Source: a virus
Taxonomy: Duplodnaviria > Heunggongvirae > Uroviricota > Caudoviricetes
IMG/VR virus record: IMGVR_UViG_2721755756_000002
DNA: 64,000 bases
Strand: one strand, 5' to 3'
Part shown: one piece after another, positions 2,701-61,742 of the stretch
Layout: each line of letters begins with the position of its first letter
Numbering within the stretch: the first letter of the stretch is position 1
Translations under genes and position numbers: made by a program
Notes under the pieces: model-generated
Seen by the model: only the letters and a program-made list of their open reading frames with translations
Told to the model about the DNA's origin: nothing
Databases searched by the model: none

Positions 2701-3345
2701 TTGTGAAAACCTCCAGTCAGTAGGTCGACATAAAGAACCTACACGTTATAACTGATAGACAACAGGCCATTCGGGCGTGCCTACCAATCAATAAAAATCG
2801 TACCGGCGCTAACCTGTGACGTTAACAGGATTCAAGAATTTGGCTCTTTGACAATCGAATCAGCAACCCGAACTATAAAGCAATCCACCTATAAGGTGAG
2901 CGCTTGGAATCCTCCTGCCAAGTTGTGGAGGGTTTTCCCAAAAAGGGTAATCATAGGGTGTTTGCTGATACTGTTTAGTGCCTATCGGTACAATGACAGT
3001 ATAAATAAAATAACAAGAAAAGTCAATTCCTGTATGGCTATGAAAATAAAAAGGCGTGCGCCTTAATTGCACTTGTGCCGTTTTCCTTGGACGAGTGCAG
3101 CAATACCACAGAATGCGCTTATTCCGCAAAAAATGGTACTTAGAATGAGTAAAACAATTTTTAACACGCCTTTGTACTATGGAGTTTTTTCATAATACAC
3201 GCCTCCTTTCGTGAATCTAAAGGGGCAAAACAATTATATCATAGCTACGCAGTTTTGAAAATAGAGGCTCAATGCCTCATGTATAAAATGGATTAGTAAC
3301 AAGGTCGGTGAATAACTGGCCTTTTGTAATAGGAGGAAAGAAAAT

Positions 3346-3597
3346 ATGGAAATGTATGAATTAGTACCTACAAATCAAAAGAGTTTTTATGGCAAAGCTA
3401 TCGTGGTAAGAGACGAAGCAGGAAATAAAACACTATATAGTTATAACACACCAATTATCAAACGTTCTAATTCTGGTGAGCTTGTCAGATTATGGGATGG
3501 TTGGAGTGCTACAACAGGCAGACATATAAAAGCTTTTTGTGGATTGAATAAGGCAGGTTTCATGGCCTTACCAGCACAAAATACAGGAGGAAAATAA
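3346..3597 (+). CDS. hypothetical early protein
   Basis: ORF with AGGAGG RBS; first gene of a long + strand early operon. Confidence 0.5.
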   Translation: MEMYELVPTNQKSFYGKAIVVRDEAGNKTLYSYNTPIIKRSNSGELVRLWDGWSATTGRHIKAFCGLNKAGFMALPAQNTGGK

Positions 3598-3599
3598 GA

Positions 3600-4091
3600 A
3601 TGTTAGATGGTACAAAAAAATATAGCATGGAGAAGTTTGGGAAGAAATGTTTTTTGTTAGGTCAAGACAAGGATGGAATTAACTATTTCCTTGAGGCAGC
3701 CACATGGGATTGTGAATGGTACTGGGGTGGTGGATATGTAGAAACATACACAAATAACTGTAATCCGGTATTATCAAAAGATATTAAAAGTCACCAACAT
3801 TTTGATGGGCTTTTCTTTGGTGGACGAAAAAATGGCTTTGATACATTTAAGGAATTTCTGCCAGTTAATCCTTTTACTGATTCGGAAATTTGGCAAATAT
3901 GCGAATTGATGAAATCGTTTTATATAGCGCGAAAGTATGCCGATATGGTTTATACAGGCGGTGCACATTATACAAAAAATCCAGCTGCTGAAATTATCAA
4001 ATCAGAAGACGAGTACAAGCGTATAAATAACATCGTAATCCCAGCTATTATGGAATCATTATATAAAATTTTGGAGGAGGTAGCAGCATGA
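3600..4091 (+). CDS. hypothetical protein
   Basis: 163-aa ORF tightly packed with the preceding ORF. Confidence 0.5.
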   Translation: MLDGTKKYSMEKFGKKCFLLGQDKDGINYFLEAATWDCEWYWGGGYVETYTNNCNPVLSKDIKSHQHFDGLFFGGRKNGFDTFKEFLPVNPFTDSEIWQICELMKSFYIARKYADMVYTGGAHYTKNPAAEIIKSEDEYKRINNIVIPAIMESLYKILEEVAA

Positions 4092-4336
4092 AAACACTGT
4101 ATCAGCGACTTGTTGAGGTCATGAAACCAGAAGAAATCGACCATCACAGCAGTGACCTGTATGTAAGGATAACAAAAGAAAGCAAACGAATCATTGACGA
4201 ATACTATGCAGAACATCCAGAGTTACATAAACATATGTTTGTAAGTATTTTTGAATCAAATATACCACCTCGTTGTTTGTGGTATGACATCGCATTTGCA
4301 TATGACCCATTCTGGGAGGAGGCGAGCAAAAAATGA
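4088..4336 (+). CDS. hypothetical protein
   Basis: ATGA overlap with upstream ORF (translational coupling). Confidence 0.5.
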   Translation: MKTLYQRLVEVMKPEEIDHHSSDLYVRITKESKRIIDEYYAEHPELHKHMFVSIFESNIPPRCLWYDIAFAYDPFWEEASKK

Positions 4337-4521
4337 AAAAGGCAGGAACAATCTTTACACTATTACTTGTTGCGTTGGTCTTAGCAACGTTTACAGCAGG
4401 ATTTTATTGTGGGCAGCAGCATACACTTGACAATCAAATTGTAACTAACACCGATCGCACGGAAGGAAACTACCTTGTGGATCTAAACGGGAAAACATAC
4501 TACTACTGGTATGAGGAATAG
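4333..4521 (+). CDS. small membrane protein (N-terminal TM helix)
   Basis: hydrophobic stretch IFTLLLVALVLATFTAGFY; ATGA overlap with upstream ORF. Confidence 0.45.
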   Translation: MKKAGTIFTLLLVALVLATFTAGFYCGQQHTLDNQIVTNTDRTEGNYLVDLNGKTYYYWYEE

Positions 4522-4768
4522 GGAAGGTAGGAAAGTAATGAAAAATTTACCAAGTGGGTACAAAAACGGGCAGTATATGCTTGTGAAGTCCATTGTGCAA
4601 AAGTATGCACATATGGCGAAAGAAGTACAACTGATTAAATGCAATACTATGTATAGAACGTTTGCACCTGAAGAGCTTATATCAGCAGAGCTGTATGGGC
4701 ACTGGCATGTACATACGTTTGATTACAACCCTGTGACATGTTCATTAGGGATATGGACTGTAGAATAA
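4511..4768 (+). CDS. hypothetical protein
   Basis: 85-aa ORF ending inside the terminator hairpin. Confidence 0.45.
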   Translation: MRNREGRKVMKNLPSGYKNGQYMLVKSIVQKYAHMAKEVQLIKCNTMYRTFAPEELISAELYGHWHVHTFDYNPVTCSLGIWTVE

Positions 4769-4783
4769 CTACAGTCTTTTTTA
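4755..4783 (+). terminator. rho-independent terminator (gactgtag-aataa-ctacagtc + T7)
   Basis: 8-bp perfect stem followed by a T-run. Confidence 0.6.
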
Positions 4784-4880
4784 TTAAACTAATCCATTTT
4801 AAACACGAGGTATTGAGCTGTGCACGGTATTTTGTACCGTGTCATAAGACAATGTAAAATAAAAGAAAGAGGTAATATAA

Positions 4881-5162
4881 ATGAAATTATCAGAATTAAA
4901 AAAAGAGCCGTTTAAATGGGAAGATATGCCTTCATATTTCCGCTTAGGGAATAGTAGATATTGTACATTTATTAAGCTTTCCAGTGTAAAAGAATGTTCT
5001 AATCCATATGCTTATATCGAAGAAGAGCCATGTCAGAATCATATTTGCAGGGTATTAAGCCCAGAAAAAACATACAATGAAGCTCTTGTAATTAGAGATG
5101 ATGGAACGGTATGGAAAATTCGTTTAGATTGTTTTAAAGATGTCGTTTTATTAGCATTTTAA
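4881..5162 (+). CDS. hypothetical protein
   Basis: 93-aa ORF with RBS. Confidence 0.45.
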   Translation: MKLSELKKEPFKWEDMPSYFRLGNSRYCTFIKLSSVKECSNPYAYIEEEPCQNHICRVLSPEKTYNEALVIRDDGTVWKIRLDCFKDVVLLAF

Positions 5163-7542: not shown

Positions 7543-7585
7543 TTAAAAAAAGAAAGACAACTACAAAGTTGCCTTTTCACTAGAG

Positions 7586-7852
7586 CTATAATAAATTAAC
7601 ATAAGCTATTCGCTGATGGATTTTACCATTCCAGTGCTCATTAAAAATTTTGAAAACACGGAATTTCTGAGACATCGAATTGGTTAGGATATCTCCAATC
7701 TCAATATTGGTAGTAGGACGAAATCCTATAATGGGAATCCCTTCATGTTCTCCATAAATCCCAATGGTGTTCTCTACTAAAATATCATTACGATGAATTT
7801 CATAGGACTCCCCATTGATTTTTAAAGCTATTTCTAGTGGTTCCAAGCTCAT
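7586..7852 (-). CDS. hypothetical protein; isolated minus-strand gene inside the + strand early operon
   Basis: 88-aa ORF with its own flanking intergenic spacers; convergent with the upstream + genes. Confidence 0.45.
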   Translation of the reverse strand: MSLEPLEIALKINGESYEIHRNDILVENTIGIYGEHEGIPIIGFRPTTNIEIGDILTNSMSQKFRVFKIFNEHWNGKIHQRIAYVNLL

Positions 7853-7925
7853 AAATTACACCCCTTTTATTTAAGTATAACAGAAATAGGGGTGTTTTAA
7901 AATAAAAAGGAAAGAAGGTATTCAT

Positions 7926-8648
7926 ATGAAGTCAAATGAAATAAAACCTCTCGTTTGGAATAATGAGAGGGTTTTGACAACAAAACAAATAGCAGAAGCT
8001 TATGGTTGTAAAGAAAAACAGATAAGACAAAACTTTAACAATCATAAAGACCGCTATAAAGAAGGTAAACACTATTATACGTTAAAAGGGAGTGATTTAA
8101 AATTCTTTAAGGATTATGTTAACTCAATGGAGTACGTCGATAACATCGACTTAGTTGATAAACGAGCACCGCATACAACTATATACACTAAAAAGGGTGC
8201 GTTTATGGCGGCTAAGCTTATTGACACAGATAAAGCGTGGGATATGTACGAACAGCTTGTTGACCACTATTTCACTGTGAATGATGCTGTCAATAAGCCA
8301 GCTCTTCCATCAGATCCAAATGAAATACTCAAGCTGATTGTACAAGCAAACGAAAATGTCTCTAAACGTGTTACAGCTATTGAACAGGATAATATCGTTA
8401 TGAAGGAACAAATGAGCACTATAAATGATGTTATCATCCTTTCAGCTGAGCATTGGGAGGAGGTCAAGAAAGTCGTAATGGAAAGAGTACATGGCATAAC
8501 AGGGAATGTATCTAAACAAAGAAAACTGTATAGGGGATTATGGAAGGCTATGCAGGAACGATATAATGTTACAAAGTGTAAGCAGATTAAGGACAAAGAT
8601 TATGCAGATGCTATTGAATTTATCAATAATTGGGAAGGAGTAAGCTGA
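7926..8648 (+). CDS. phage antirepressor-like protein (ORF6N domain)
   Basis: N-terminus LVWNNERVLTTKQIAEAYGC...HYYTLKGSDLKFF...KLIDTDKAWDMYEQLVDHYF matches the ORF6N/Ant pattern. Confidence 0.65.
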   Translation: MKSNEIKPLVWNNERVLTTKQIAEAYGCKEKQIRQNFNNHKDRYKEGKHYYTLKGSDLKFFKDYVNSMEYVDNIDLVDKRAPHTTIYTKKGAFMAAKLIDTDKAWDMYEQLVDHYFTVNDAVNKPALPSDPNEILKLIVQANENVSKRVTAIEQDNIVMKEQMSTINDVIILSAEHWEEVKKVVMERVHGITGNVSKQRKLYRGLWKAMQERYNVTKCKQIKDKDYADAIEFINNWEGVS

Positions 8649-8649
8649 C

Positions 8650-9591
8650 ATGGAAGAAAAATTGAGATTAGCGTTATTTACAGAAAGAACAAATGTTTTT
8701 ATCCATGGAGATGATGTTGATGTGGACAATCCAAAATATACCATGGATATAGTAGGTAATAAGCTTTATTATCGTCATCCAAGGTTTAGTGAAGCGCTGG
8801 TGGAGTTTCCGCTTGAATTTGCATTTCAAAATTTGCCAGATGAATATTTAACTGAACATGCGAAAGTATATTTTTGTACATGTAACTGGTACGAGCGTAA
8901 TATATCTTGGGCGAAACCATATTGTAATTTATGGGATTTCGGAGGGTTAGACAACTTTTATGGAAGGACTGCTGATGATACATGGGCAGTATATGAAGAT
9001 TTTTATGATTTTGTGAAAGAGCTGTCAGTAGAAAACAGGGAATATCTGGACTTGTTGATCGCTTTGAATAAATATTCTGGTGATGAAGGAGATGGATTTG
9101 AACAATATGGTAAAATCAGTGAAATTCCGGATGTTATCCCTTTAGCTTACACAACATCTGATAATGGAGATTTTGAGGTTCGAGTAGAATTTGACCTGAA
9201 AAATTTAAAATGGAAAGAATATATAAATGAAGATTTATTCAGGGAAGAAAAGATGTCTTTGCACGATTTTATTGACAAACTTAATGAATGCGAATTTATG
9301 ATAGTGTTGCATGATGTACTTGCAGCTGCAAATATAATCGAGGAGAATAACGATATGAGCAAATATGAGATGGTTGGGACTTATACAGATAATAAAACAG
9401 GTACACAATCTGTTTTGACATGTAGTATTGAAGATAACACGGTTGTGTTCAATAATTTTAATAAAGGTAATGCAGGTTCGTGGACAGATAGATTTCCATT
9501 AGACGAGGCGATAGGTGAAAAGCATAACGGAGAGAAATGGTTTTCTTTGCTTTATAATTGGCTCCATGATGGAAGGAGGTACATTAAATGA
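8650..9591 (+). CDS. hypothetical protein (313 aa)
   Basis: long ORF; no recognisable motif. Confidence 0.55.
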   Translation: MEEKLRLALFTERTNVFIHGDDVDVDNPKYTMDIVGNKLYYRHPRFSEALVEFPLEFAFQNLPDEYLTEHAKVYFCTCNWYERNISWAKPYCNLWDFGGLDNFYGRTADDTWAVYEDFYDFVKELSVENREYLDLLIALNKYSGDEGDGFEQYGKISEIPDVIPLAYTTSDNGDFEVRVEFDLKNLKWKEYINEDLFREEKMSLHDFIDKLNECEFMIVLHDVLAAANIIEENNDMSKYEMVGTYTDNKTGTQSVLTCSIEDNTVVFNNFNKGNAGSWTDRFPLDEAIGEKHNGEKWFSLLYNWLHDGRRYIK

Positions 9592-12394: not shown

Positions 12395-13228
12395 GTGACG
12401 ATTATGGAATATAAAGTCAAGGTATTTTTGAATACAGAATTTGAAGTTGAAGCATCTTCAATGGAAGAAGCTGAAGCTGTTGCATGGCCGCAGGTCTATG
12501 AAAATGCTATTGAGCATGGTTTTGAAATAGAAGTTGAAGAAATGGACAAAGATTTGCGAGACAAGTTTAATTATTATTTTGAAATTGTTTATAATGCTTT
12601 GAAAAAGAAAAATTATATAGATTTTATAGAGATTATGAATAACCCTGACTTAAAATATGGATTGTATTATATCACACGATGTTACCATATTGGATACAGT
12701 TTTGCAGAATACGGATTATGCAATATGGTGATGCTGATGAATGGTTCTAATAGCAAATATTTGAATTACCATGACCTGCAAAAAATAGGGATAGACAGAA
12801 AAGAATATGAGCAATGCTTTTGTGAATTTAAGAAAGTTGGCATCCCTATAGTTACAGTATCAGTACAAGAAAAAAAGAACGAATTTGCAGGAGAATTTGG
12901 ATGGCTTTCTCCTACAGGTGTATTTACACCATCACCATTTGGAACTCATGAGCAAACAGCTAGTGAAATAACAGAGAAGAAGCACCTTGCAACTGATTTT
13001 CGCTTATGGATAAGAAAGCAAAAAAAAGAAGAACAAATTTTTATGAGTTTATATAGAGATTTTCTAATCCATGAAAAAGGATATTGTCTTATCCACAACC
13101 CATCATCCAATGGTGGATATATTGTTACAAATCATAAAAAACTAACAAAGGCTCAGAACGAATTTTTGTTTGGCTATTTTATGGATCTAGGGTATGCATT
13201 AAAAGCCGAGCGATTTATAGAAAAATAA
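12395..13228 (+). CDS. hypothetical protein (277 aa)
   Basis: long ORF. Confidence 0.5.
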   Translation: MTIMEYKVKVFLNTEFEVEASSMEEAEAVAWPQVYENAIEHGFEIEVEEMDKDLRDKFNYYFEIVYNALKKKNYIDFIEIMNNPDLKYGLYYITRCYHIGYSFAEYGLCNMVMLMNGSNSKYLNYHDLQKIGIDRKEYEQCFCEFKKVGIPIVTVSVQEKKNEFAGEFGWLSPTGVFTPSPFGTHEQTASEITEKKHLATDFRLWIRKQKKEEQIFMSLYRDFLIHEKGYCLIHNPSSNGGYIVTNHKKLTKAQNEFLFGYFMDLGYALKAERFIEK

Positions 13229-13246
13229 TAAAGGAGAGTAAAGAAA

Positions 13247-13714
13247 ATGAAACTAACTAAAGAAGAATGCCAAAAAGCATTGAGTGTTGTTGAAAATTTA
13301 AAAGGAATACCATGTCCTGTATGCAGGGAGAATGAAACAGACGATACAGTTCTGTTTGATGAAAGCCAAGAGTTTGTAAAAGATTGTGATGTACTCTGCG
13401 AGCTCATAAGAGAACATTTTGAACTTATAGAAACAGCAAAACAACTTCAAGATGAAGTTGATAAATACAAACACGAATATTTTGCGATGTGTGATTTGAT
13501 AGAAAACCCTGTGCCCTTAAATTTCGAAGAATTAAAAAAAGGTATGTGGGTGTGGGATGATAAGAAAAAATGGTATAGGAAAATAGTTATTCTTTTTGAA
13601 CCCTGCCAAGAACACCCTAAAGGTAGTTTTAAATCATATGCAGATTCATGTGAAACAAGTTTAGATTTTATAGAATTTAAAGAAAACCGTTTCTATCGCG
13701 GGGAGGTGCAATAA
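13247..13714 (+). CDS. hypothetical protein with CxxC pair
   Basis: contains CPVC. Confidence 0.5.
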   Translation: MKLTKEECQKALSVVENLKGIPCPVCRENETDDTVLFDESQEFVKDCDVLCELIREHFELIETAKQLQDEVDKYKHEYFAMCDLIENPVPLNFEELKKGMWVWDDKKKWYRKIVILFEPCQEHPKGSFKSYADSCETSLDFIEFKENRFYRGEVQ

Positions 13715-14095
13715 ATGATGTATACATGGACTTTTAATCCAAATAATCCGTGGCCAAATGATACGTTTGATACTATCGAAGAATGCTTGGGTGAAGCACG
13801 ATGTAACCCATACTATGAAGGTCAGATTATTTATATTGGTGAAGCAATACCCTACACATTTACTGTTGATGCAGAGTATATGTTGGATAGATTGTCAGAG
13901 CAGGCATTTTATGAGGTAGGAGAAGTAGCGGATGATTGGCCTTATGGTTATCGCAGTGAAGATTTAGATAAACTAGCAGAAAAATTAACTGAATGCGTTA
14001 CAGAATGGTTAAAAGAACACAATGATTTGCCAAGCTTTTACAAAGTTAGCAATGTTAGAGCGATAGGAATAGATAATAATGAAAAAATACAATAG
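13715..14095 (+). CDS. hypothetical protein
   Basis: 126-aa ORF. Confidence 0.5.
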   Translation: MMYTWTFNPNNPWPNDTFDTIEECLGEARCNPYYEGQIIYIGEAIPYTFTVDAEYMLDRLSEQAFYEVGEVADDWPYGYRSEDLDKLAEKLTECVTEWLKEHNDLPSFYKVSNVRAIGIDNNEKIQ

Positions 14096-14165
14096 TATAG
14101 ACGGCCGTATACATACAAACAGCAGGTTGTGGTTTGCTTTCCGGATGGCAGTGAGGAGTTAGTAT

Positions 14166-14555
14166 ATGAAAAAATATCAAGAAGCACTAAATAGAATATT
14201 AGATAATGACTACGATTTTCCACACGATTTTTATGGGGAAGATAAAGCTACTACGAAAGAACGTGATGCCGATATTTTGCAAGAGTTAATCGATAGAGAA
14301 AACAATAGCAAGACAGCAAGAGAGATGTTTAAAGAATTAGGGTATGAGTGTGATGATTCATACGATGATTGTATATATTTCACAAAATACTTCCAAGAAA
14401 CAAAAGTGAATTTTCAAATTTGTTTTGATTTAAAAATCAAACAATGTGAATTGAATGCAGATTGTGATTGTAAAGGATTAATTCTTAGTTTTGATGAAAA
14501 AGAACATAAAGCGATTCATCAACAAATGAAAGAACTGGGGTGGCTAGAACAATGA
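14166..14555 (+). CDS. member 1 of the 'KYQEAL' small-protein paralogue family
   Basis: N-terminus MKKYQEALNRIL and internal ILQELIDREN, shared with the three downstream ORFs. Confidence 0.5.
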   Translation: MKKYQEALNRILDNDYDFPHDFYGEDKATTKERDADILQELIDRENNSKTAREMFKELGYECDDSYDDCIYFTKYFQETKVNFQICFDLKIKQCELNADCDCKGLILSFDEKEHKAIHQQMKELGWLEQ

Positions 14556-14857
14556 ATAAATACCAAGAAGCGTTAAATAGTTTAATAAGAGTGTCTTGTG
14601 TCAAAAAAAATAGTTGTAATGAATGCGAAATACGTAAGGTTTGTAATTGTGAAGCTAGGTCATATATTGACACGCTACAAGAATTAGTGAATAGAGCAAC
14701 ACCTAAAAGACCAGCTACTAAAGGTGGATATACAGATTTTAAATGTCCTGTTTGTGGTAGACGTGTTAGAAGTGGCAAAGGTTCATCAAGTAGGCAAAAG
14801 GATAATGTGTGTCAAAGATGTTTTCAGGTTCTAGATTGGAGTGAAGAAAATGAATAA
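14540..14857 (+). CDS. member 2 of the 'KYQEAL' family; Cys-rich with zinc-ribbon-like motifs
   Basis: MNKYQEALNSLI...TLQELVNRATPKRP...CPVC...CQRC. Confidence 0.5.
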   Translation: MARTMNKYQEALNSLIRVSCVKKNSCNECEIRKVCNCEARSYIDTLQELVNRATPKRPATKGGYTDFKCPVCGRRVRSGKGSSSRQKDNVCQRCFQVLDWSEENE

Positions 14858-15136
14858 ATACCAAAAAGCTTTACTTGCTATAAAAAAATCGTCATCGATG
14901 AACGAGCTGATGGCTTTTATCATCCACGGACAGTTGCAGATTTTTACTGCGGTGAAGTCGATATTATGCAAGAATTAGTTAATAAGGCATCTCCTAAAAA
15001 GCCATATCGTGGTGAATTTGGTTATCGTTGTCCGATTTGTAAAACTTACGAGATTTACGATTATGAACATGATTATGAATCAATGTATTGCTCAAATTGT
15101 GGACAACGAATAGATTGGAGTGATGGAATTGAATAA
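14850..15136 (+). pseudogene. member 3 of the 'KYQEAL' family, interrupted by a -1 frameshift at an A7 run (14882-14888)
   Basis: MNKYQKALLAIKK in one frame; ...IMQELVNKASPKKP...CPIC...CSNCGQRIDWSDGIE in the -1 frame; the halves are homologous to members 1 and 2. Confidence 0.45.
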
Positions 15137-15515
15137 ATATCAAGTTGCATTCGATGCATTGTATGATGAAGATGAAATGTATAAATTGGCCAAAGGATTT
15201 TCTTTTGATGATGATTACACATCCGAATATGATTATGAAAAAGCCAAAGAATATTGCAAAAGTACGATGCAGGGATTGATAGATAAGTATGCTTGGATAC
15301 CGGTAGAAGAAAGACTGCCTGAAAAAGAAGGATATTATATAAGTGGTGATTATTTAGTTACACTAAAATATGACATTCTGAATATGAGCGTAGTTCAGTG
15401 CGCAAGAATTACACCAGATGAAAGATGGATGCGCATGACACCCAATGGTGAAATTGATGTAACCAATGAAGTTATTGCATGGATGTCATTACCGGAGGCA
15501 TATGGAGGTGAATAA
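15120..15515 (+). CDS. member 4 of the 'KYQEAL' family (divergent C-terminus)
   Basis: M(M)ELNKYQVAFDAL N-terminus. Confidence 0.45.
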   Translation: MMELNKYQVAFDALYDEDEMYKLAKGFSFDDDYTSEYDYEKAKEYCKSTMQGLIDKYAWIPVEERLPEKEGYYISGDYLVTLKYDILNMSVVQCARITPDERWMRMTPNGEIDVTNEVIAWMSLPEAYGGE

Positions 15516-15525
15516 AATGAATGAA

Positions 15526-15753
15526 TTAAAACAATGCCCATTTTGTGGAGGAGCAGCAGAAGTTTATGAATATGATAATGGCCATAAAGGAAATGGCATA
15601 TATACAGCTACATATAGAATAGGTTGTCCAAAATGTAAAGTGTATTTCACACATAATGTTGAGTTTAAATTAGAAAAAGGCCAGCCTGTGTTTATACAAA
15701 ACGGCTATGAAAAATGTGCTAATGCTTGGAACAGGAGAATTGGTAATGAGTGA
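15526..15753 (+). CDS. Lar-family restriction alleviation protein
   Basis: MNELKQCPFCGG...CPKCK...ANAWNRR matches the Lar (TIGR03655-like) signature CPFCG...AWNRR; GGAGGTG RBS 8 nt upstream. The track ORF 15466-15753 probably starts too early. Confidence 0.6.
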   Translation, partial: LKQCPFCGGAAEVYEYDNGHKGNGIYTATYRIGCPKCKVYFTHNVEFKLEKGQPVFIQNGYEKCANAWNRRIGNE

Positions 15754-16153
15754 AATTTTAAATAAAAGAGGTATTGACCTTAATGAAGGGCATCGGCTTC
15801 CAGATTTGCTAAATCAATGCAATCCTTGTGTAATGTGTTCATCAAATCCATTTCACTGCAAAGAAAGGAAAGATTGTAATGCAATTAGTAAATGGGTAGA
15901 GCTGGTGAACTATATAGAGATGTTAGATGCATCTGATACTTCTAAAGAAGAATGTACAATCATGCAATATGGAGAAATTAAGGAACTTGAGAATGAGGTG
16001 AAGAGTCTTCAGGCAGCTTTAAATAGAGCATGTGATAAATTGGAGTTCTTCAGTAGAATATGTAATGATTACGATGAAGATATCGCTTTGAGCGAAGACT
16101 GGAAAGAGTGGTGTATAGAAAGTGAAGGAGCTAAAAGAAAACACAAGCTTTAA
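15707..16153 (+). CDS. hypothetical Cys-rich protein
   Basis: ORF; true start may be the internal Met at about 15746. Confidence 0.4.
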   Translation: MKNVLMLGTGELVMSEILNKRGIDLNEGHRLPDLLNQCNPCVMCSSNPFHCKERKDCNAISKWVELVNYIEMLDASDTSKEECTIMQYGEIKELENEVKSLQAALNRACDKLEFFSRICNDYDEDIALSEDWKEWCIESEGAKRKHKL

Positions 16154-17114
16154 CGTCGGGGATACTACTATAAATACAATCGTAAATGCAAGTACGGCTA
16201 TAGCAGTACAATTTCAATTTGATGCGCCAACATTCTTGGAATGTTGGAATGAGGTGTACGCCAAAAAGATAATCAAAAAGTCAGAAGGTACGCAACGTAG
16301 TTATCAGTCAGCATTCAGAAGATTTTCTTATCTGTACGAAAGGAAGATCAATACAATCACTTTAAGAGATTTACAACCCATCTTTGATAATGCCATGGAA
16401 GCAGGAGCATCTAGGTCATTATTATGTAATATGAAATGTATTTTAAATTATATTTATGACTATGCCCTAAGGTATGATTATGCATTTAAACGTTATCCAG
16501 ACTATATCGAATGGGAAGCTACTACTCAAGATGTAATCAAACACGAACCATTTTCAAAGGAAGAAATTCAAAAAATATATGAAGCTGCAAGTCATTCAAG
16601 ATTTTGTGAGTTAATACTAATTTATATCTATACTGGTATGCGTCCAATTGAGCTTATCTGTATGACTTCAGAGGATATACACCTTGATGACGATTATATG
16701 GTAGGTGGTGCAAAAACACATGCAGGTAAGAATAGGATAATCCCTATACACCCGTTGATTAAACCGTACATCGTCCATTTGCTTGAAAGGGATAAAAGGT
16801 ATCTACTATATAATGATTGTAATAGACATACGGTAAATAATTATCGTATGAACATGTTTTATCCCGTAATGGACATTTTAGGTATGGATCATTACCCATA
16901 CGATACTCGACATACCTTTGCAACACTTTGTAATGAATATCATGTTGATGATTATGCAGTCAAGAAAATTATGGGGCATTCTTGCAATGATATCACTAAA
17001 GATGTGTATACACATGCATATCTTGATTATTTACAAAAACAAATCAGAAAGTTACCAAATCCTGATAAATTGAATAAGAAAAGTATGTGGAGGAAATTGT
17101 TTGAAGAGATATGA
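16122..17114 (+). CDS. tyrosine site-specific recombinase (phage integrase family), internal to the replication region
   Basis: SAM-like N-terminal domain; catalytic-region motifs TGMRPIEL (Arg), KTHAGKNRIIPI (Lys), DTRHTFATL (H/R), GHS...DVYTHAY (His, Tyr). Confidence 0.75.
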   Translation: MKELKENTSFNVGDTTINTIVNASTAIAVQFQFDAPTFLECWNEVYAKKIIKKSEGTQRSYQSAFRRFSYLYERKINTITLRDLQPIFDNAMEAGASRSLLCNMKCILNYIYDYALRYDYAFKRYPDYIEWEATTQDVIKHEPFSKEEIQKIYEAASHSRFCELILIYIYTGMRPIELICMTSEDIHLDDDYMVGGAKTHAGKNRIIPIHPLIKPYIVHLLERDKRYLLYNDCNRHTVNNYRMNMFYPVMDILGMDHYPYDTRHTFATLCNEYHVDDYAVKKIMGHSCNDITKDVYTHAYLDYLQKQIRKLPNPDKLNKKSMWRKLFEEI

Positions 17115-17722: not shown

Positions 17723-18550
17723 ATGCTAGTGATACTAATATTGAAAGGAGGGAAATGTGTGGGTAAAAATGAAATAACTGATTTTGACAAGTATGTATCT
17801 GAAAGATATACAACTACCATTGCAAAAAGATTTGGTACAATTGCTAAGTTGTTTAATCAATACATGTGTGATAACGGGCTTAAAGCAGAAGCTGTTACAG
17901 AACAGGATATAAAGGACTTTATATCTAGCAAGGAAAAATTGAGAATGACCGAATACTTGATGTGCTCAGCTATAAAATGTTATGGAGAATATCTAGGGCT
18001 GAATAACATCATTGGTGTAGATGTCGATACGGGCAAAGATGTTAAGGTCTTAACTAGATCCGACATTGACAATATGCTGGATCGACATGATGTTACGTAT
18101 AGGCAAAAGTTATTGGTAAAACTATCTTATACGTATCTATTCAAAAAGTCAGATATTATCAATTTGAAGTTTTCTGATATTGACTTTGATATGAGGACGA
18201 TCCGACGTGGAGATTTGATTTTAGACATAGATGATGAGTTTGAAATCATGTACAAAGACTATTATAAAGATCTTATGGAAGATATAGCTAGGTGGCAGGA
18301 AACAAGAAGAAAGAAGTCCCGCCCTGAGCTAAAGTATTCAAATCATGTGTTTCGGACAGCCAATTCAATTAAATTGTCAATTTCAACAATAGAACAGGAT
18401 TTATTAAGGTTAGGTACAAACGTAAAAGTTTTACGAGACAGTGGAAAGGTAGACCTATTAAAAAACGGTCATACTGTTGCAGAAGTTTTGGAGCTTGCAG
18501 GTACAGACAACTATGATGCTGTAATTAAACTTTATAAACATGTCTTATAG
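17723..18550 (+). CDS. divergent tyrosine-recombinase-like protein (possibly catalytically altered)
   Basis: integrase-like N-terminal region; C-terminus VLRDSGKVDLLKNGHTVAEVLELAG...KLYKHV is similar to LRHTFAT...GH...YxH but lacks the HxxR His. Confidence 0.4.
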   Translation: MLVILILKGGKCVGKNEITDFDKYVSERYTTTIAKRFGTIAKLFNQYMCDNGLKAEAVTEQDIKDFISSKEKLRMTEYLMCSAIKCYGEYLGLNNIIGVDVDTGKDVKVLTRSDIDNMLDRHDVTYRQKLLVKLSYTYLFKKSDIINLKFSDIDFDMRTIRRGDLILDIDDEFEIMYKDYYKDLMEDIARWQETRRKKSRPELKYSNHVFRTANSIKLSISTIEQDLLRLGTNVKVLRDSGKVDLLKNGHTVAEVLELAGTDNYDAVIKLYKHVL

Positions 18551-44361: not shown

Positions 44362-44374
44362 TATAGCGTTTAAC

Positions 44375-44397
44375 CCTTTAAATAAAAGGGTTTTTTT
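44375..44397 (+). terminator. rho-independent terminator (cccttt-aaata-aaaggg + T7)
   Basis: follows the tRNA-like fragment as in genuine tRNA gene ends or attP. Confidence 0.55.
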
Positions 44398-44435
44398 ATT
44401 ACTTCTCTTAATTTGGTGTAAATTTGGTGTAAAAT

Positions 44436-45623
44436 TCATATGGAATTAAGCTTATCCACCATTTTTATTTGAGCGTCATTGAACCAATGACCATAAATAT
44501 TGTTCACCATATCCACGGTATGCCCAAGTCTTTTTGCTATATCAAATGAATCAAAGCCTAAGTTGATTAATAATGAAACATGAGAATGACGGAAATCATG
44601 AATTCTGATTATCGGAACATCAGCTTTTTCAGCACATCTATCTTTGATGTTTTTGATATTATTATTGTCTAATGGCTTATCCATGAAGAAAACAAAACTA
44701 TCTTCACTAAAACCGATTATGTCTTTTTCATACTGATAAAGAATTAACATGGCTTTATAACACGTATCAGGCATAAGGATTGTCCTATATGAATTTCTTG
44801 TTTTAGGTGTAGTTATTAACTTTGTTTGCTTACTGTATGTTTTAGAAATATGAATGCTTTTTTCTTGCATATTAACATCAGACCATTTTAGTGCAAGTGT
44901 TTCACCAAGTCTGGTGCCACACCAATAAAGAACACTATAGAAGGCTACATATATAACACTTTTTTCTTCAAGCTGAACTTGTTTGATGAAGCTATTATAT
45001 TCGTCAGGATGCCAGAAATGCATCTCTTTCTTGATTTCATTTTTCCTTTGAGCAATTTTGAAATTGGTAATTCTATAATCTTTAATGTATCCCATGTCAA
45101 AACCGTATTTGAGAATTCCTTTAAATTTTGTTTGGATCGCTTCTATTGTCCTGTTTGCTAATAAGCCGCCATGTTTAGACTTTTGAGTTAATAAACTTTT
45201 TTGGTATAACTCGATTGTTTTTTTTGAAATCTTATCAAGGTGAATATCCTTCCAATAAGGAAGAATATGTAACTCAGAGACTTTTGTATAATCATAAATT
45301 GATCTTTCTTTTAATATGCCTTGCTTTGATGAAATAAATATACTGTATAGTTCACCAAAAGTTATATTACTACTAACTTCATTTTTTGCTGCTAAAAGGA
45401 ATGAACGTTCCCAATCTTTTGCTTCTTCCTTTCCTGCAAAACCTCTTTTATGATATCTATGAAGTTCGCCATTACAGTCAACGTAGCTTCCTTCACATTT
45501 ATAGGTTATTTTTTTTACCATTTTACTTTTGTCTTTTTTGCTTTTGACAAAGCGTTCATCTTTTTTAACTGCCATTGAATTTACCTCCATTTTTTTAGTA
45601 TAATGAAGGTACAATAAAAGCAA
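44436..45623 (-). CDS. int: tyrosine integrase
   Basis: CGTRLGETLALKW (Arg); HDFRHSHVSLL (H-x-x-R); LGHTVDMVNNIYGHW (His, Tyr); convergent with the other integrase across the att remnant. Confidence 0.8.
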   Translation of the reverse strand: MLLLYLHYTKKMEVNSMAVKKDERFVKSKKDKSKMVKKITYKCEGSYVDCNGELHRYHKRGFAGKEEAKDWERSFLLAAKNEVSSNITFGELYSIFISSKQGILKERSIYDYTKVSELHILPYWKDIHLDKISKKTIELYQKSLLTQKSKHGGLLANRTIEAIQTKFKGILKYGFDMGYIKDYRITNFKIAQRKNEIKKEMHFWHPDEYNSFIKQVQLEEKSVIYVAFYSVLYWCGTRLGETLALKWSDVNMQEKSIHISKTYSKQTKLITTPKTRNSYRTILMPDTCYKAMLILYQYEKDIIGFSEDSFVFFMDKPLDNNNIKNIKDRCAEKADVPIIRIHDFRHSHVSLLINLGFDSFDIAKRLGHTVDMVNNIYGHWFNDAQIKMVDKLNSI

Positions 45624-45719
45624 TGATTCGTGGTCATTCGTTTATTGTACCGATAGTGGTACGCCAATACCTACTATCACCCTCGTTCCTACGCCAATAG
45701 GAGCGGGGGATTTTTTTGT

Positions 45720-46514
45720 TTAATCATATTTATTTGTATAAACTGTCCCATCCAAAGATAAATAAGTACATGATGCTATATCATCTTGTATTTCCATTTT
45801 AATTACAAAATCACCACGTACTTCAGTACCAAAACTATTTTGTGAATCAACATAAGACTTAACAGTGATTATTTCATCTTTTTCATCATACTGCCAGTCT
45901 TTATCTGGATTTAAAAAAGAACCGGGGTATTTAGCTGTTGATGGTGATTTTAGTATCTTACTAATCCACTGTTTACAATTTTCTTGAATAGCACTTCTAC
46001 CATATGTATCTAATAATGACGATGAATTAGTAGATTTACCTAAACTTGCAGGTATACTTTTTTTTGCTAATTCTTTATAATTTTTGTTAATAGAGGACAT
46101 TTGGTTAATAAAGTCATCAAATTGAATATTTATAACTTTTAGATATTTTTCAAAATCATCACGAGCTTCTTTATTTGTATTTTGTTTGTCATTACTGTAG
46201 ACTATTTCAGTGATGTATTTACCATCTGAATACTTATCAAATCTCGAATAGTCAATCATAACTAACTTAGTATAGTCATGCATTATGCTAATCATCAAAT
46301 AATCATCTTCAACATAACCTTTTATATCCAAATAAATATATCCGTCAGTTCCATCTTTTTTATTGCCTTCACTGTATTCAAATTCAAAACCATCTTCTTT
46401 CATTGTTTCTAAAGGATCATCAGAATAGTTTTTTTCTTTTTCATCATCGGATCCTCCGCATCCACTTATTCCAAAACATAAGATTAGGCACAATACTAAG
46501 AAAAACTTTTTCAT
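45720..46514 (-). CDS. lipoprotein (moron / possible superinfection exclusion candidate)
   Basis: signal peptide plus lipobox ISGCGG; located between int and the CI-like repressor. Confidence 0.6.
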   Translation of the reverse strand: MKKFFLVLCLILCFGISGCGGSDDEKEKNYSDDPLETMKEDGFEFEYSEGNKKDGTDGYIYLDIKGYVEDDYLMISIMHDYTKLVMIDYSRFDKYSDGKYITEIVYSNDKQNTNKEARDDFEKYLKVINIQFDDFINQMSSINKNYKELAKKSIPASLGKSTNSSSLLDTYGRSAIQENCKQWISKILKSPSTAKYPGSFLNPDKDWQYDEKDEIITVKSYVDSQNSFGTEVRGDFVIKMEIQDDIASCTYLSLDGTVYTNKYD

Positions 46515-46577
46515 TTTACTTTTTCTTCCTTATTATTCAAGTATGCTTTCATCATAAAGATATATCAATTATAAGAC

Positions 46578-47444
46578 CTAATACTTTTGTCGACACTCAA
46601 CAACTTTGCCAATTATTTTAACCGGGAGTTGTTCAATATCATCTGCTGTATATATCCATGGATCATATTTTGTGTTAAAAGGTATCAGCATGATACCGTT
46701 ATCCATGATTCTGATCTTTTTAACTGTTGCTTCATCGCCATTTACGAGTACGATTGCCACATCACCTGTCTGAGCGGTTTCTTGCTTCCGGACAATAACG
46801 ACATCCCCTTCGCTCATTTTTGGCTCCATGCTGTCTCCTTTGACCTGTAATGCGAAAAAATCACCAGTACGTGCCATTGATTCAGATATTTCTTCATAAT
46901 CTAATATTTCTTCGATCGCTTCGATTGGAATTCCTGCAACAACACGTCCAAGAACAGGTACTTTGATACCGCCGGTTGATAAAGAACTTCTTCCGACTAA
47001 TTCTGTAAGATCAGATTTATAACATTTAAAATAGCTTGTTAACTTTTGTAATATTGTTATATTAGGTATTTTTATACCATTTAACCATTTATTGACTTCA
47101 TCAATTTTCACATCACATACTTGGGCGATGATTTCTTTTGAACTAGCTGACATATTTAAATAATGTTTTAATTTATATGCGAAAATTTCTTCTTTAGATT
47201 TAAAGGTTTTCGGATTACCATTAAAGTCAGTTAAATCATTATTTACACCCATTAACCATGCTGGTGATACATTTAATGCTTCGGCTAGTAAATAGATTTT
47301 ATCTTGCTTAGGTATTACTTTGCCCTTTAAATATTGACTTATTGCAGGACGACCTAAATTAGTGTCTCTTGCTAGATCAGCTTGTGTTTTATTGGATTTT
47401 GAAAAAGCTAGATTAAGCCGTTCTGTAGTTTTAGATGTTTCCAT
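46578..47444 (-). CDS. CI/LexA-like repressor (HTH_XRE x2 + S24 peptidase)
   Basis: N-terminal HTH QADLARDTNL...ISQYLKG; S24 core GDSMEP...GDVAIVLVNGDEATVKK with a Ser/Lys dyad. Confidence 0.75.
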   Translation of the reverse strand: METSKTTERLNLAFSKSNKTQADLARDTNLGRPAISQYLKGKVIPKQDKIYLLAEALNVSPAWLMGVNNDLTDFNGNPKTFKSKEEIFAYKLKHYLNMSASSKEIIAQVCDVKIDEVNKWLNGIKIPNITILQKLTSYFKCYKSDLTELVGRSSLSTGGIKVPVLGRVVAGIPIEAIEEILDYEEISESMARTGDFFALQVKGDSMEPKMSEGDVVIVRKQETAQTGDVAIVLVNGDEATVKKIRIMDNGIMLIPFNTKYDPWIYTADDIEQLPVKIIGKVVECRQKY

Positions 47445-47606
47445 AATTTCCTCCTTGTTAAATAGATTATAACACTTTGAACAAACTATTCAAGATGTTT
47501 AACTGCTAATGTTAAATAAATTGAATAAACATATTGCTTTTTTTGAAAATAGGTGCTATTCTTTAATCGTGTTCAAAAAGTTTAACACAAGAGAGGAGGT
47601 GATATC

Positions 47607-47846
47607 ATGTGCACAAGTCAGGTTACGTTTGATTATTGCAAACTGAGAGGAAGGATAGTTGAGAAGTTTGGGTCTCAACGTGCTTTTGCTGATGCGTTAA
47701 AGACCTCTGAGAATCAAGTTTCTTATAAATTAAACAACAAAAAGAAATTTGAAGACAGAGAAATTTTACATTGGTGTGAGTTGCTTGGTATACCAGATAG
47801 GGATATAAACCTATATTTTTTTACAAAGAGTGTTCAAAATGTTTAA
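47607..47846 (+). CDS. Cro-like HTH protein
   Basis: 79 aa; divergent from the repressor; RAFADALKTSENQVSYKLNN HTH-like. Confidence 0.5.
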   Translation: MCTSQVTFDYCKLRGRIVEKFGSQRAFADALKTSENQVSYKLNNKKKFEDREILHWCELLGIPDRDINLYFFTKSVQNV

Positions 47847-47868
47847 CAGATAGGAGGGCAGCCTTATT

Positions 47869-48633
47869 ATGAAGGTATTAAATGAAATTGAGTATTCAAA
47901 TAAGAAAGTCTTAATAACTCAGCAATTAGCAGAAGTTTACGAAACTGATATTAAGAATATTCAAATGAATTTTGCTAGAAATAAGACACGATTTGTTGAG
48001 GGAGTACATTTCTTTCTTCTTAAAGGAGATGCTTTAAGAGCGTTTAAGAACTTACCAACTTTGAGTGGGTTAGTTGACAAACATGCAAATCAACTAATTC
48101 TCTGGACAGAAAAAGGCGCTGACCGTCACTGCAAGATTCTTGATACAGATAAAGCATGGGAGCAATTTGATAATCTGGAAGAAACTTATTTCAGAGTTAA
48201 AGATAATGCAGCAATTCCAAAAACACTTCCAGAAGCTTTAAGGGCATATGCTGATCAGGTGGAAGCAAATGAAAAATTACAAATAGAAAACAACAACATG
48301 AGGCCTAAAGCATTATTTGCTGATGCTGTAGCAACGAGTAATGATTCAATCTTAGTCGGACAACTCGCCAAGCTTATTAAACAGAACGGATGCAATATCG
48401 GGCAAAATAGATTGTTTGCATGGATGCGAGAGAATGAGTTTCTTTGTATCAAAGGTGATAACTATAATATGCCCACGCAGAAAGCAATGGAACGTGGTTT
48501 GTTTGAAATTAAAGAACGAACTGTTAATAATCCAGACGGTAGTGTTAGGACTACACGGACACCAAAGGTTACAGGCAAAGGTCAGATATTTTTTGTTAAT
48601 AAGTTTTGTAAAGGAAATGGATGTTTAAAGTGA
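47869..48633 (+). CDS. phage antirepressor (ORF6N + KilA-C-like)
   Basis: KVLITQQLAEVYETDIKNIQMNF...HFFLLKGDAL...ILDTDKAWEQFDNLEETYF parallels the 7926-8648 protein. Confidence 0.65.
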   Translation: MKVLNEIEYSNKKVLITQQLAEVYETDIKNIQMNFARNKTRFVEGVHFFLLKGDALRAFKNLPTLSGLVDKHANQLILWTEKGADRHCKILDTDKAWEQFDNLEETYFRVKDNAAIPKTLPEALRAYADQVEANEKLQIENNNMRPKALFADAVATSNDSILVGQLAKLIKQNGCNIGQNRLFAWMRENEFLCIKGDNYNMPTQKAMERGLFEIKERTVNNPDGSVRTTRTPKVTGKGQIFFVNKFCKGNGCLK

Positions 48634-48935
48634 AAGGAAAGTATGATGATTCGCTAAATATTGAGCGTGAACGTATCATTATGAAAATTTACCTTACTTT
48701 AACGGATGTGAGAAATTTTCTTAGATGTAGTTGGCCAAAAGCCAAGATAAGATTTAATGAGGCAGCTGATCTATGCATAAAAGATGGAAAGAAAAATCTT
48801 GAAGGAAGGGTTTATTACAAATATTTTCTTCAAGTAATTGCTATAAGCGAGAGTGAAATTCATAAAATGGCTAAATATGAAAGGCAAATAAAAATGTCGC
48901 ACCCCACGACCAATGACGATGCGACAAAACTATAA
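48621..48935 (+). CDS. hypothetical protein (possible small DNA-binding regulator; start likely internal Met)
   Basis: 104-aa ORF. Confidence 0.35.
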   Translation: MFKVKGKYDDSLNIERERIIMKIYLTLTDVRNFLRCSWPKAKIRFNEAADLCIKDGKKNLEGRVYYKYFLQVIAISESEIHKMAKYERQIKMSHPTTNDDATKL

Positions 48936-48988
48936 GCGACTCGAATAACAAGTCAATCTTATTATAGAGCGGGGAAAGGAGAAAAACA

Positions 48989-49213
48989 ATGGTTTATTTG
49001 GTGATTTCCATCATTGCTTTAATGATATCCGTGATTTGTTATATAAGGGTGCGTGCTTTAGATAACGAGTTTGAAAGTTTGGAGCGAAGAACCTATGGGA
49101 ACATTAAATTCAATAGTTTCTATTTACAGCCAACAAGAGAACAATTAGAAAAAGCTGAAAGATATGAAAAAATCCTCAAAGAATATAAAACTACTTTTGA
49201 GGATAAGGAATAG
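48989..49213 (+). CDS. small membrane protein
   Basis: N-terminal TM helix VYLVISIIALMISVICYI. Confidence 0.4.
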   Translation: MVYLVISIIALMISVICYIRVRALDNEFESLERRTYGNIKFNSFYLQPTREQLEKAERYEKILKEYKTTFEDKE

Positions 49214-49757
49214 TAACAGAGTATTGTTTGAAATTCTTACGCTTCCTGTTACGGTCTATTGAATTTGGAATTAGAGTTTCTTTGGTTATTTTAAACCTAA
49301 TTGTTATAGAAGATGTATGAAGATTCGTTACATTGACAGGTATTTCAAAACGTGTGAAATGATTGCTCTTGAATATACCGAAATTACTGTCCAGTGGATA
49401 TAATCTGCATCTGTAATTATTTATATATGAATAAACTAGTCCACTATCTTGTGGTGTTAGACCTACATTAAATTTTGTTAGATAGTCTATAGGGTTATTC
49501 TTATCATCAAGAACCATTAAATCAAAAAAGCCAATGTCAGTCGGACTTGGATTTACTAATAAAAAAGAGAAAGATGCCAATGTATATTCAGTTATTGGTT
49601 CGGCTTGTGGGTCAGTAAATATTTCATTCAATATGAAATATTCTTCTGGCAGATGCACACTTAGACGTTTCCTTGATTTATATAGTGTATATAGAGAAAT
49701 CAAAATCGCAATGAAAGAAAAAATGAACGAATAAAAATTTAAGTCAAGCTCATGCAT
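49191..49757 (-). CDS. membrane protein encoded antisense to the early operon (moron; exclusion/abortive-infection candidate)
   Basis: 188 aa; N-terminal TM helix FYSFIFSFIAILISLYTLY; only sizeable minus-strand ORF in this block. Confidence 0.45.
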   Translation of the reverse strand: MHELDLNFYSFIFSFIAILISLYTLYKSRKRLSVHLPEEYFILNEIFTDPQAEPITEYTLASFSFLLVNPSPTDIGFFDLMVLDDKNNPIDYLTKFNVGLTPQDSGLVYSYINNYRCRLYPLDSNFGIFKSNHFTRFEIPVNVTNLHTSSITIRFKITKETLIPNSIDRNRKRKNFKQYSVTIPYPQK

Positions 49758-50277
49758 ACTACCACCTCTTTACAAGGTTAATTATAGTATGCCAAGAAGA
49801 TAAAAACAATATGAAAGGAGGAGAACAAAGCATATGGAATCTTCAATTAATGATAAAGCTTCAATAACGTATGATTTGCAAGGATTGATGATTGAAAAAA
49901 TCGTGTTTACAAGTTGTCCAAAAGAGGTAGAAGATTTAAAAAAATCTGAATTCAGCGTGATACTAAATCCAGATAGTAAAGATGGAGTATTGCTTCATGC
50001 GAATTTCTTTATCCTTTGTAAAGAGACGAATCAGGAATAGGCAGTTTATCATCACCTTCACAAATGAATGATAAGAATGAATGTGGAAAATCGGTATCAA
50101 CTGACTCACCTTGAAAGTACCAACCGAGTTTAACATATTCAGCAATTATCCATTCTTTATAATTTTCACTTAATTCCTCGCTCCTTAGGCGTTGAATAAA
50201 AGTCATAAATGGCAGCCCCCTTTCTTAGCTATATTTTAACGCTAATCGGGGGAATTATAAGAAGAAAGGAGAAGTCA

Positions 50278-50838: not shown

Positions 50839-50848
50839 GAGAAAAAAT

Positions 50849-51313: not shown

Positions 51314-51427
51314 GACCAACGAAGTTCTGGATAACATCGACTTCCAGCTGGAGAAAGATGCTGAAGCAGAAGAAGAATTTATGGCACACGAGGAAAGGGA
51401 CAGGAAAAGTACGGAGGAGATTTTCTA

Positions 51428-53485: not shown

Positions 53486-53499
53486 AAGGAGAAATTATC

Positions 53500-55534: not shown

Positions 55535-55552
55535 GGAAAGAGAGGGAACAAA

Positions 55553-57432: not shown

Positions 57433-57451
57433 GGGGGCAGTGAAAGAAGGG

Positions 57452-61734: not shown

Positions 61735-61742
61735 ATAAAAAT

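Follow-up and report, generated by a model that had tools for sequence, protein, structure and literature searches.

An apparently coupled tandem array of modular NKYQEAL proteins, and the exchange of their modules among Clostridium innocuum prophages

Results

Organization of the array

The stretch of tailed-phage DNA analyzed here (IMG/VR record IMGVR_UViG_2721755756_000002, 64,000 nt, termed the window below) carries a tandem array of four small genes on its plus strand, designated A to D, followed directly by a gene of the Lar restriction-alleviation family. The four proteins start with M(K/N)KYQ(E/K/V)A(L/F), and a second conserved block, L/MQ(E/G)L(I/V)(D/N)(R/K), is located some 40-50 residues further in. 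These blocks form the two ends of an N-terminal module (N-module), the second of them acting as the hinge to an exchangeable C-terminal module (C-module). Gene A (14166-14555, + strand, 129 aa; MKKYQEAL…LQELIDR, hinge LQELIDR at 14277-14297) has an N-module with the acidic insert DYDFPHDFYGEDK and a Cys-containing, non-ribbon C-module without any family match. Gene B (14552-14857, + strand, 101 aa; MNKYQEAL…LQELVNR, hinge at 14675-14695) is a canonical member: a Cys-rich loop marks its N-module, TPKRP forms the linker, and the protein ends in a zinc ribbon (CPVCGRRVRSGKGSSS…CQRC). Gene C is split. Its 5' fragment (14850-14978, + strand, frame 0, 42 codons, MNKYQKAL…; WAK79375 in GenBank) loses homology to the family at a run of seven A residues (A7, 14882-14888, + strand), and its 3' part (14889-15136, + strand) continues in the -1 frame, where the N-module is completed (…IVIDERADGFYHPRTVADFY…MQELVNK) and the linker and zinc ribbon follow. 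The GenBank coding sequence for this 3' part covers only 14966-15136 (MQELVNK…; WAK79376, "DNA binding protein"). Gene D (15129-15515, + strand; 128 aa from TTG 15129 or 130 aa from ATG 15123) joins a divergent N-module, (M)NKYQVAF…MQGLIDK with the hinge at 15267-15287, to a DUF551 C-module that begins at WIPVEE (15294). The Lar-family gene (15517-15753, + strand) encodes a 78-aa zinc ribbon without the N-module. The canonical architecture is thus limited to B and C within the array, and zinc-ribbon C-termini, which a sequence-only reading of this DNA had attributed to all four copies, are found in these two, not in D, which ends in DUF551, or in A, which ends in its unrelated module. Regarding charge, B is basic (isoelectric point, pI, 9.05), A and D are acidic (pI 4.6 and 4.3) and C is mildly acidic, the range for A, C and D being 4.3-5.4.

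Membership was analyzed with a hidden Markov model (HMM) of the N-module, built from database sequences outside the window only and searched against all 982 stop-to-stop segments of the window. Gene B was matched at E 8e-21, the downstream frame of gene C at E 1.6e-14 (model positions 7-51), gene A at E 1.2e-9 and the upstream fragment of gene C at E 5.6e-6 (model positions 1-19). Gene D gave a marginal E of 0.015, and the best unrelated segment an E of 0.32. Because a model free of window sequence finds A, B and C strongly and D marginally, the array is real and more than a chance resemblance: it has three clear members and one divergent member, D. The paralogy proposed by the sequence-only reading, four copies sharing an N-terminal motif and an internal block, is borne out on this basis.

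A large family without a description

The search with gene B gave 79 relatives. With a profile of the N-module alone (E ≤ 1e-3), 943 clusters at 90% identity and 1,151 representatives at 50% identity were collected. Among the 150 best representatives, none has a module start beyond residue 19, and over 90% have it at residue 1-3. The hosts, as judged from named sources and a scan of species-representative genomes, are mainly Erysipelotrichales, including C. innocuum, Thomasclavelia, Longibaculum, Merdibacter, Holdemania, Dielma, Longicatena and Erysipelothrix. One member, P0087, is attributed by NCBI to a metagenome-assembled genome of Phocaeicola vulgatus; as all other named sources are Erysipelotrichales or Firmicutes, this is probably a mis-binned phage contig. 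The common plan consists of MNKYQEAL-x-x-L, a variable insert, (T)LQELVDKATPKKP, and two Cys knuckles ending in CGQxLDWS(D/E)E. The two knuckles follow the hinge in 215 of the 271 members inspected (about 80%); the other C-modules among the 271 are DUF551, "GMWVWDD…ENRFYRREV", the module of A and helical tails. K3, Y4, Q5, A7, L8, E44, L45, V46, P51 and the four ribbon Cys are nearly invariant. An AlphaFold2 (AF2) model of B with 50 homologues (predicted local distance difference test score, pLDDT, 78) predicts helices at residues 3-15 and 32-49, with a low-confidence Cys-rich loop and a confident ribbon. The corresponding model of A, from an alignment of two sequences, had a pLDDT of 50.6 and was unusable.

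Searches of A-D against Pfam, PHROGs and NCBIfam gave no family for the N-module or for the C-module of A, and a Pfam scan of the family members recognized generic zinc-ribbon families only, with nothing for the N-module. The family motifs do not occur in the searchable literature. Among 50,697 deposited phages, tblastn found B in Clostridium phage Amboise only, and the C-module of A in Amboise plus one weak match (E 8e-3). The earlier description of the family as unrecognized therefore holds, and the N-module defines a large, undescribed family of small modular phage proteins. The highly conserved ribbon of B (CPVCGRRVRSGKGSSS…CQRC) is also located behind a second type of N-module, MTYEEAI…ALEKQIPKKP (P0037, P0041-P0075). 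The two N-modules are probably homologous, as judged from a profile comparison (hhalign probability 93%, E 2.7e-7). If so, the plan of hairpin, PKKP and ribbon would extend beyond the NKYQEAL branch, and the superfamily would be wider than the profile counts indicate.

Junctions and coupling

The genes of the array are packed tightly. At the A/B junction, the start of B overlaps the stop of A (ATGA). At the B/C junction (14850-14857, + strand), the 8-nt ATGAATAA places …E-N-E-stop of B over M-N-K of C, and the same 8-nt overlap, as TTGAATAA, is observed at the C/D junction (15129-15136, + strand). Both fit (A/T)TGAATAA, in which …NE-stop of one gene is M-N-K of the next, and within ATGAATAA a stop is present in each of the other two frames. 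Furthermore, the TGG AGT (W-S) codons of the preceding gene provide a GGAG 8-9 nt upstream of the next start. The DWS tail is coded TGG AGY in all 8 of the 8 distinct tails, AGY making up 0.40 of the Ser codons in this phage. Since the tails are related sequences, this count is suggestive, short of a clean statistic. Gene D probably starts at TTG 15129, because (M)NKYQ is restored from this codon. The block looks like a chain of translationally coupled cassettes, as far as junction sequence can indicate. Promoter scanning showed no excess over shuffles. Scanning for terminators gave six terminator-like sites against 2.3 expected, none of them within or flanking the array on its strand, and no operon boundaries were obtained.

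The frameshift in gene C

Because (14966-14850) mod 3 = 2, the 3' part of gene C is read in the -1 frame with respect to its 5' half. When one A is added to 14882-14888, a 95-aa open reading frame (ORF) is obtained that is 100% identical to database protein P0080, which is encoded with eight A residues (A8) on contigs L011 and L012. In comparison with the window, the extra A is the only indel on these contigs, accompanied by 3-4 substitutions, three of which are common to both loci. The split of the third copy by a -1 frameshift at the A run, as first proposed, is thereby confirmed. As to its origin, the A8 allele is in frame (ATA AAA AAA ATC) in L011 and L012 and also in the more distant prophages L026-L028, where the N-module of gene C is joined to a different C-module. 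The A7 allele occurs in the window, L013, L014, L015 (the I46 chromosome), the phage record and many independent read-set assemblies. Other close relatives are without gene C altogether. Since all intact relatives carry the in-frame A8 and A7 recurs across independent assemblies, A8 is the ancestral state and A7 a genuine, lineage-specific one-base deletion that truncates copy 3.

The sequence-only reading had left room for two other explanations, a sequencing error and a slippery or phase-variable tract. An error in sequencing or assembly might be suspected since some platforms are prone to errors in homopolymers, and since chromosome and phage record come from the same strain. The 56-aa fragment gene, which requires A7, is however indexed in 219 blocks of independent assemblies, including Illumina-based Logan assemblies and CP065320.1, against 4 contigs with the intact form, all of a different haplotype; the chance of an error is negligible. 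A functional recoding or phase-variation site, acting by -1 ribosomal frameshifting, transcriptional slippage or an ON/OFF switch, is very unlikely. It would be in keeping with the phase of the A7 allele, as A_AAA_AAA at 14882-14888 fits the slippery heptamer X_XXY_YYZ when counted from ATG 14850, with the natural occurrence of both alleles, and with the variation of another homopolymer in the same prophage (an extra A in L014 at 12870-12876). On the other hand, a conserved -1 shift was not found in relatives, every intact carrier of the N-module of gene C, including the distant L026-L028, having the in-frame A8. The A8 loci are a separate haplotype sharing 3 single-nucleotide differences, and A7 and A8 are not mixed within one lineage. 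No stimulatory RNA structure was detected at 14875-14975 (minimum free energy -20.1 kcal/mol, z -0.41), the 101 nt folding no better than shuffles, 65 of 200 of which fold as well, and a run of seven is short for efficient slippage. A pattern scan of IMG/VR DNA for the context of the A run gave no match. Low-level spontaneous -1 slippage on A7 is conceivable by inference, because the deletion leaves A_AAA_AAA in phase.

Two further homopolymers were observed. In the metagenome assembly L014, A8 replaces A7 at 12870-12876 and splits the 277-aa gene 12395-13228 into 182 + 61 aa, so that indels in homopolymers are a repeated feature of this prophage lineage or of its assemblies. A C8 run at 1596-1603 is the sole run of G or C of at least 6 bases in the window, whose sequence is 35% GC.

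Exchange of modules

The combinations in which N- and C-modules occur are varied. The insert of A (DYDFPHDFYGEDK…) is paired with the C-module of A, with the ribbon of B (P0007-P0014) and with the ribbon of C (P0081). The insert of C (IVIDERADGFYHPRTVADFY) is paired with its own ribbon, the C-module of A (P0082), DUF551 (P0085) and the GMWVWD module (P0083, P0084, P0086, P0087, P0090). For the Cys-rich insert of B, the partners are a wide range of ribbons and the GMWVWD module (P0058). From these pairings, the N- and C-modules assort independently among near-identical C. innocuum prophages. The number of family copies in a prophage is one to four.

The joints could be located in two cases. The relatives L002-L010 match the window at 99-100% identity on either side of an exchanged segment. 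In the segment itself, 14865-15293, which holds the rest of C and the N-module of D, a single 106-nt insert takes the place of the window sequence. The breakpoints, mapped in L005, lie immediately after MNKYQ and exactly at WIPVEE, so that the identical DUF551 module carries a different hairpin. In L029, a single gene joins the N-module of A (90% nucleotide identity) to the C-module of B (97%). The matches share 22 nt at the hinge, and the gene is what unequal crossing-over between tandem copies would be expected to produce. The conserved blocks thus seem to double as recombination joints. Since the motif DNA of the four window paralogues differs at synonymous sites, the blocks are kept by selection at the protein level. 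The rapid diversification claimed in the sequence-only reading is therefore upheld as to speed; its main route is the exchange of modules, not point divergence.

The pool of C-modules extends to a gene upstream of the array (13247-13714, + strand, 155 aa), which has the C-terminal module …GMWVWDD…ENRFYRGEV. This module is 73% identical (E 5e-44) to that of P0084, which bears an N-module of the ORF-C type, and the DNA of the gene matches gene 2 of L026. By sequence, it belongs to the same exchangeable pool. The N-terminus of the gene is not a significant member of the family in the search with the N-module HMM (E 3.3).

The Lar and DUF551 assignments

The Lar-family gene scores 30.2 bits against PF14354 (gathering score 28.6; model positions 2-57 of 58), 37.1 bits against TIGR03655 (anti_R_Lar), just under the cut-off of 39.6, and E 3.8e-8 against PHROG 599. 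Its four-Cys ribbon reads MNELKQCPFCGG…GCPKCK…CANAWNRR, with an N-terminal CPFCG knuckle and a C-terminal AWNRR. The assignment to Lar made from the CPFCGG…AWNRR signature is therefore probably right, at a borderline level. When A-D were compared with the Lar profile, only the restored C gave a weak match (E 0.084, 13.6 bits). Gene D matches PF04448 (DUF551) over residues 57-126 with 22.6 bits (gathering score 22.0; model positions 1-66 of 68) and PHROG 15198 with E 1e-9. A suspected likeness between the Cys-rich stretch of the next ORF, 15746-16153, and the Cys-rich insert of B was not significant (BLASTP E 0.26).

Genomic setting

Over positions 13200-16200 the window matches Clostridium phage Amboise (ON453899.1) with 100% identity. 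Amboise is a prophage of the gut bacterium [Clostridium] innocuum I46, a member of the OMM12 consortium, and is reported to be inducible (PMC10197239). The I46 chromosome, CP065320.1 (L015), is identical to the window across the 6.2 kb fetched around the locus. The structural genes in the Amboise record are located in the other arm, on the strand opposite to the array. Along the plus-strand arm the order is anti-repressors, the array, recombinases and a Sak4-type annealing protein, then DnaB, primase, helicases and exonuclease. Because the array shares its arm with anti-repressor, recombination and replication genes, its early-region location, as proposed in the sequence-only reading, is reasonable by position. 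Terminase and portal genes had been guessed at 23-31 kb of the window; the ORFs there are DnaB helicase, primase, anti-repressors, helicase and exonuclease.

Directly after the array, inside the early operon, two tyrosine-recombinase-like genes were observed at 16122-17114 (PF00589, 48.8 bits) and 17723-18550 (23.6 bits, below the gathering score); a second integrase, a resolvase or an invertase are possible roles. The integrase in the Amboise record is located at ON453899 31445-32500, outside the window. The gene at 13715-14095 is named "tail protein" in GenBank (WAK79372) despite its early-arm position. This label is probably wrong, since the sole match is PHROG 1672, of unknown function (E 1e-27). 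The window runs about 19.6 kb beyond the end of the ON453899 record (~44362-64000), with genes turning to the minus strand at about 44.4 kb. It is therefore drawn from the I46 chromosome, with neighbouring sequence that is host DNA or an adjacent prophage. Two functional prophages in the same I46 region are described in the source paper on the prophage.

The surroundings of family members elsewhere include several other gene sets. In L016, a Thomasclavelia-type prophage, ThiF (E1-like) and Prok-E2_D (825-2960) are located 2-4 kb upstream of an NKYQEAL gene, with SocA_Panacea downstream; the set looks like a prophage-borne ubiquitin-like conjugation module. In L022, ParB_N, TAGT-like and radical-SAM-like genes (DNA modification) are found at 7555-9548, close to a family member. 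In L019, a C5 and an N6/N4 DNA methylase occupy 3064-4988, directly upstream of the family member.

Discussion

A model for the array

The observations are probably best accounted for by a translationally coupled tandem array of a modular family, shuffled by recombination, whose products we infer to be dispensable, non-enzymatic binders. Each protein would begin with a two-helix hairpin, its conserved base formed by MNKYQEAL-x-x-L (helix 1) and LQELV(D/N)K (helix 2), its tip by an insert of 10-40 residues that is hypervariable. The exchangeable C-module would be attached through a Pro/Lys linker (TPKKP). Recombination at the two conserved blocks would swap hairpin inserts and C-modules and fuse or split neighbouring copies, leaving prophages with one to four copies in varied combinations. 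In the present lineage copy 3 has suffered a recent deletion from A8 to A7. At most, a little full-length protein could arise from it via -1 slippage, and a ribbon-only product could come from an internal ATG. The genes appear dispensable, as prophages differ in copy number and Amboise is still inducible with one copy broken. The hairpin base may serve as a common scaffold or docking surface for binders expressed from the early accessory region, and the variable tip and C-module may confer specificity for strain-variable host factors. Among the classes of target, host defence would be the single most likely.

Several points weigh against this model. The scaffold or docking role is suggested by conservation and by one AF2 model with a low-confidence loop, recombination is read from a handful of loci, and gene D joins the family at a marginal score. 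The connection with host defence depends on association with a neighbouring gene whose own Lar assignment is borderline. Moreover, the paralogues need not share one kind of target, because their charges differ strongly, B being basic, A and D acidic and C mildly acidic.

Rival functions

Neighbours of the family in other phages are SSB, ERF, RusA and DNA methylases, and in Amboise Lar and DUF551. An anti-defence island, in which every paralogue inhibits host restriction-modification or another defence together with Lar, is possible but less likely than not. It is in accordance with the adjacent Lar-family gene, the early-arm location and the acidic character of A and D, as well as with combinatorial diversification and variable copy number, as expected in an arms race; two DNA methylases are found directly upstream of the family member in L019, and a D12 methylase about 2 kb upstream in L029. 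Nevertheless, the proteins show no similarity to any known anti-defence protein, the Lar function here is read from near-threshold HMM scores, and replication and recombination genes occupy the same neighbourhoods. When 149 family members were scanned (E ≤ 0.01), Lar_restr_allev was also absent from the 25 Pfam families with the most matches, a list of generic zinc-ribbon, DUF and chance families. An anti-defence role of the family is thus plausible by association. Another proposal is that of nucleic-acid-binding accessory factors of replication or recombination, whose ribbons would contact DNA or RNA and whose hairpin would dimerise. A family gene is located directly beside SSB in several prophages and near ERF, RusA and DnaB; the ribbon of B is very basic, with an invariant RVRSGKGSSS, in keeping with the pI of the protein, and the "DNA binding protein" label of the ribbon of C in GenBank derives from PHROG 16351, a weak match (E 0.005). 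Most paralogues, however, are acidic, the DUF551 and GMWVWD C-modules are not ribbons, and hypervariability and dispensability are atypical of replication factors, which makes this function distinctly unlikely.

It is also fairly unlikely that the proteins are modulators of development or host physiology, biasing lysis-lysogeny or host replication in the manner of the lambda exo-xis proteins Ea22 and Ea8.5. Ea22 shares the logic of a conserved N-terminal, coiled-coil part with mosaic C-terminal domains, DUF551 among them, and lies just upstream of xis and int (PMC10834534), and a tyrosine recombinase gene (16122-17114) likewise comes after the array. Against this, there is no Pfam Ead/Ea22 match and no sequence relationship, the function of Ea22 itself is poorly defined, and shuffling of modules at the level of strains would be less expected of a protein that regulates the switch of the phage itself.

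Implications

Through the N-module, about a thousand clusters of gut-phage "dark matter" become one definable family with a two-module grammar and mapped recombination joints. The array is also a concrete case of domain exchange within genes, beside exchange of whole genes, in a phage accessory region. Furthermore, the near-identical prophages of C. innocuum, which is culturable and, as strain I46, belongs to the defined OMM12 mouse consortium, provide a natural combinatorial library in which hairpins and cargo modules are recombined, and testing of the conserved versus the variable parts is thereby straightforward. If the anti-defence role is true, the family is a large new source of such factors for phages of Erysipelotrichales; if it is not, the array still marks recent recombination among these prophages.

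Comparison with known systems

Proteins of the TraR/DksA type, for example lambda orf73, are likewise small, combine a helical hairpin with a four-Cys zinc finger and occur in phage accessory regions. The zf-dskA_traR finger and the coiled coil with an acidic tip that characterize them were not found in the array proteins. The Lar family (PF14354/TIGR03655; Lar of the Rac prophage) includes the gene at 15517-15753 and consists of small zinc-ribbon proteins, as B and C are; the NKYQEAL paralogues are not Lar, and the Lar gene is without the N-module.

Phage T4 injects an anti-restriction protein, IPI*. The capsid targeting sequence (CTS) of T4 is MKTYQEFIAE (PMC8442874), in which packaging is directed by residues 4 and 7, and cleavage by residues 8 and 10 (PMC9026906). 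As in the array, hyperplastic sets of unrelated small proteins have only a short N-terminus in common, of the form M-x-x-Y-Q-E-hydrophobic-(I/L); Y4, critical in T4, does not vary in the NKYQEAL family, and LQE in the hinge conforms to the L/I-x-E pattern of cleavage sites. By this analogy, the N-block (MNKYQEAL) and hinge (LQE|LVDKATPKKP) could form a CTS-like signal for targeting and processing rather than a scaffold. Temperate siphophages of Firmicutes would then package a shuffled set of small effector modules (zinc ribbons, DUF551 and others) in the virion and inject them together with the DNA as a first-strike counter-defence. Such a signal would account for conservation confined to the two ends of the N-module, with free variation between and after them. 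We regard it as highly improbable. The phage type and host are unrelated, the genes here are located in the early arm opposite the structural genes, and no prohead protease is recognisable in the structural arm. The NKYQEAL module has no Glu at position 10, and a two-block hairpin of about 50 aa is present in place of a 10-aa propeptide. The predicted AF2 hairpin would moreover explain the conserved hydrophobic positions, which weighs against a targeting signal.

DUF551 is described in the literature as a portable domain fused to varied N-termini (PMC10834534). It has no known function or solved structure, and in this family it is an alternative to several other cargo modules that the NKYQEAL hairpin can carry. 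The closest analogue of the array proteins is Ea22 (Ead/Ea22, IPR025153) of lambda and Stx phages, a small early accessory protein with a conserved helical N-part and portable, mosaic C-domains, one of them DUF551, encoded upstream of recombinase genes (PMC10834534). The pairings of modules and the mapped breakpoints give the same architecture of a conserved N-part with mosaic C-domains in the array, a likeness of architecture and not homology, as the Ead_Ea22 signature had no Pfam match in A-D at E ≤ 1. Ea22 is encoded by one gene and contains a long coiled coil, whereas here a short hairpin with a hypervariable tip, usually with a zinc ribbon, is found in coupled tandem arrays. The array therefore belongs to a known kind, the mosaic small accessory proteins of phages, represented by an undescribed family in which the exchange of modules is unusually clear.

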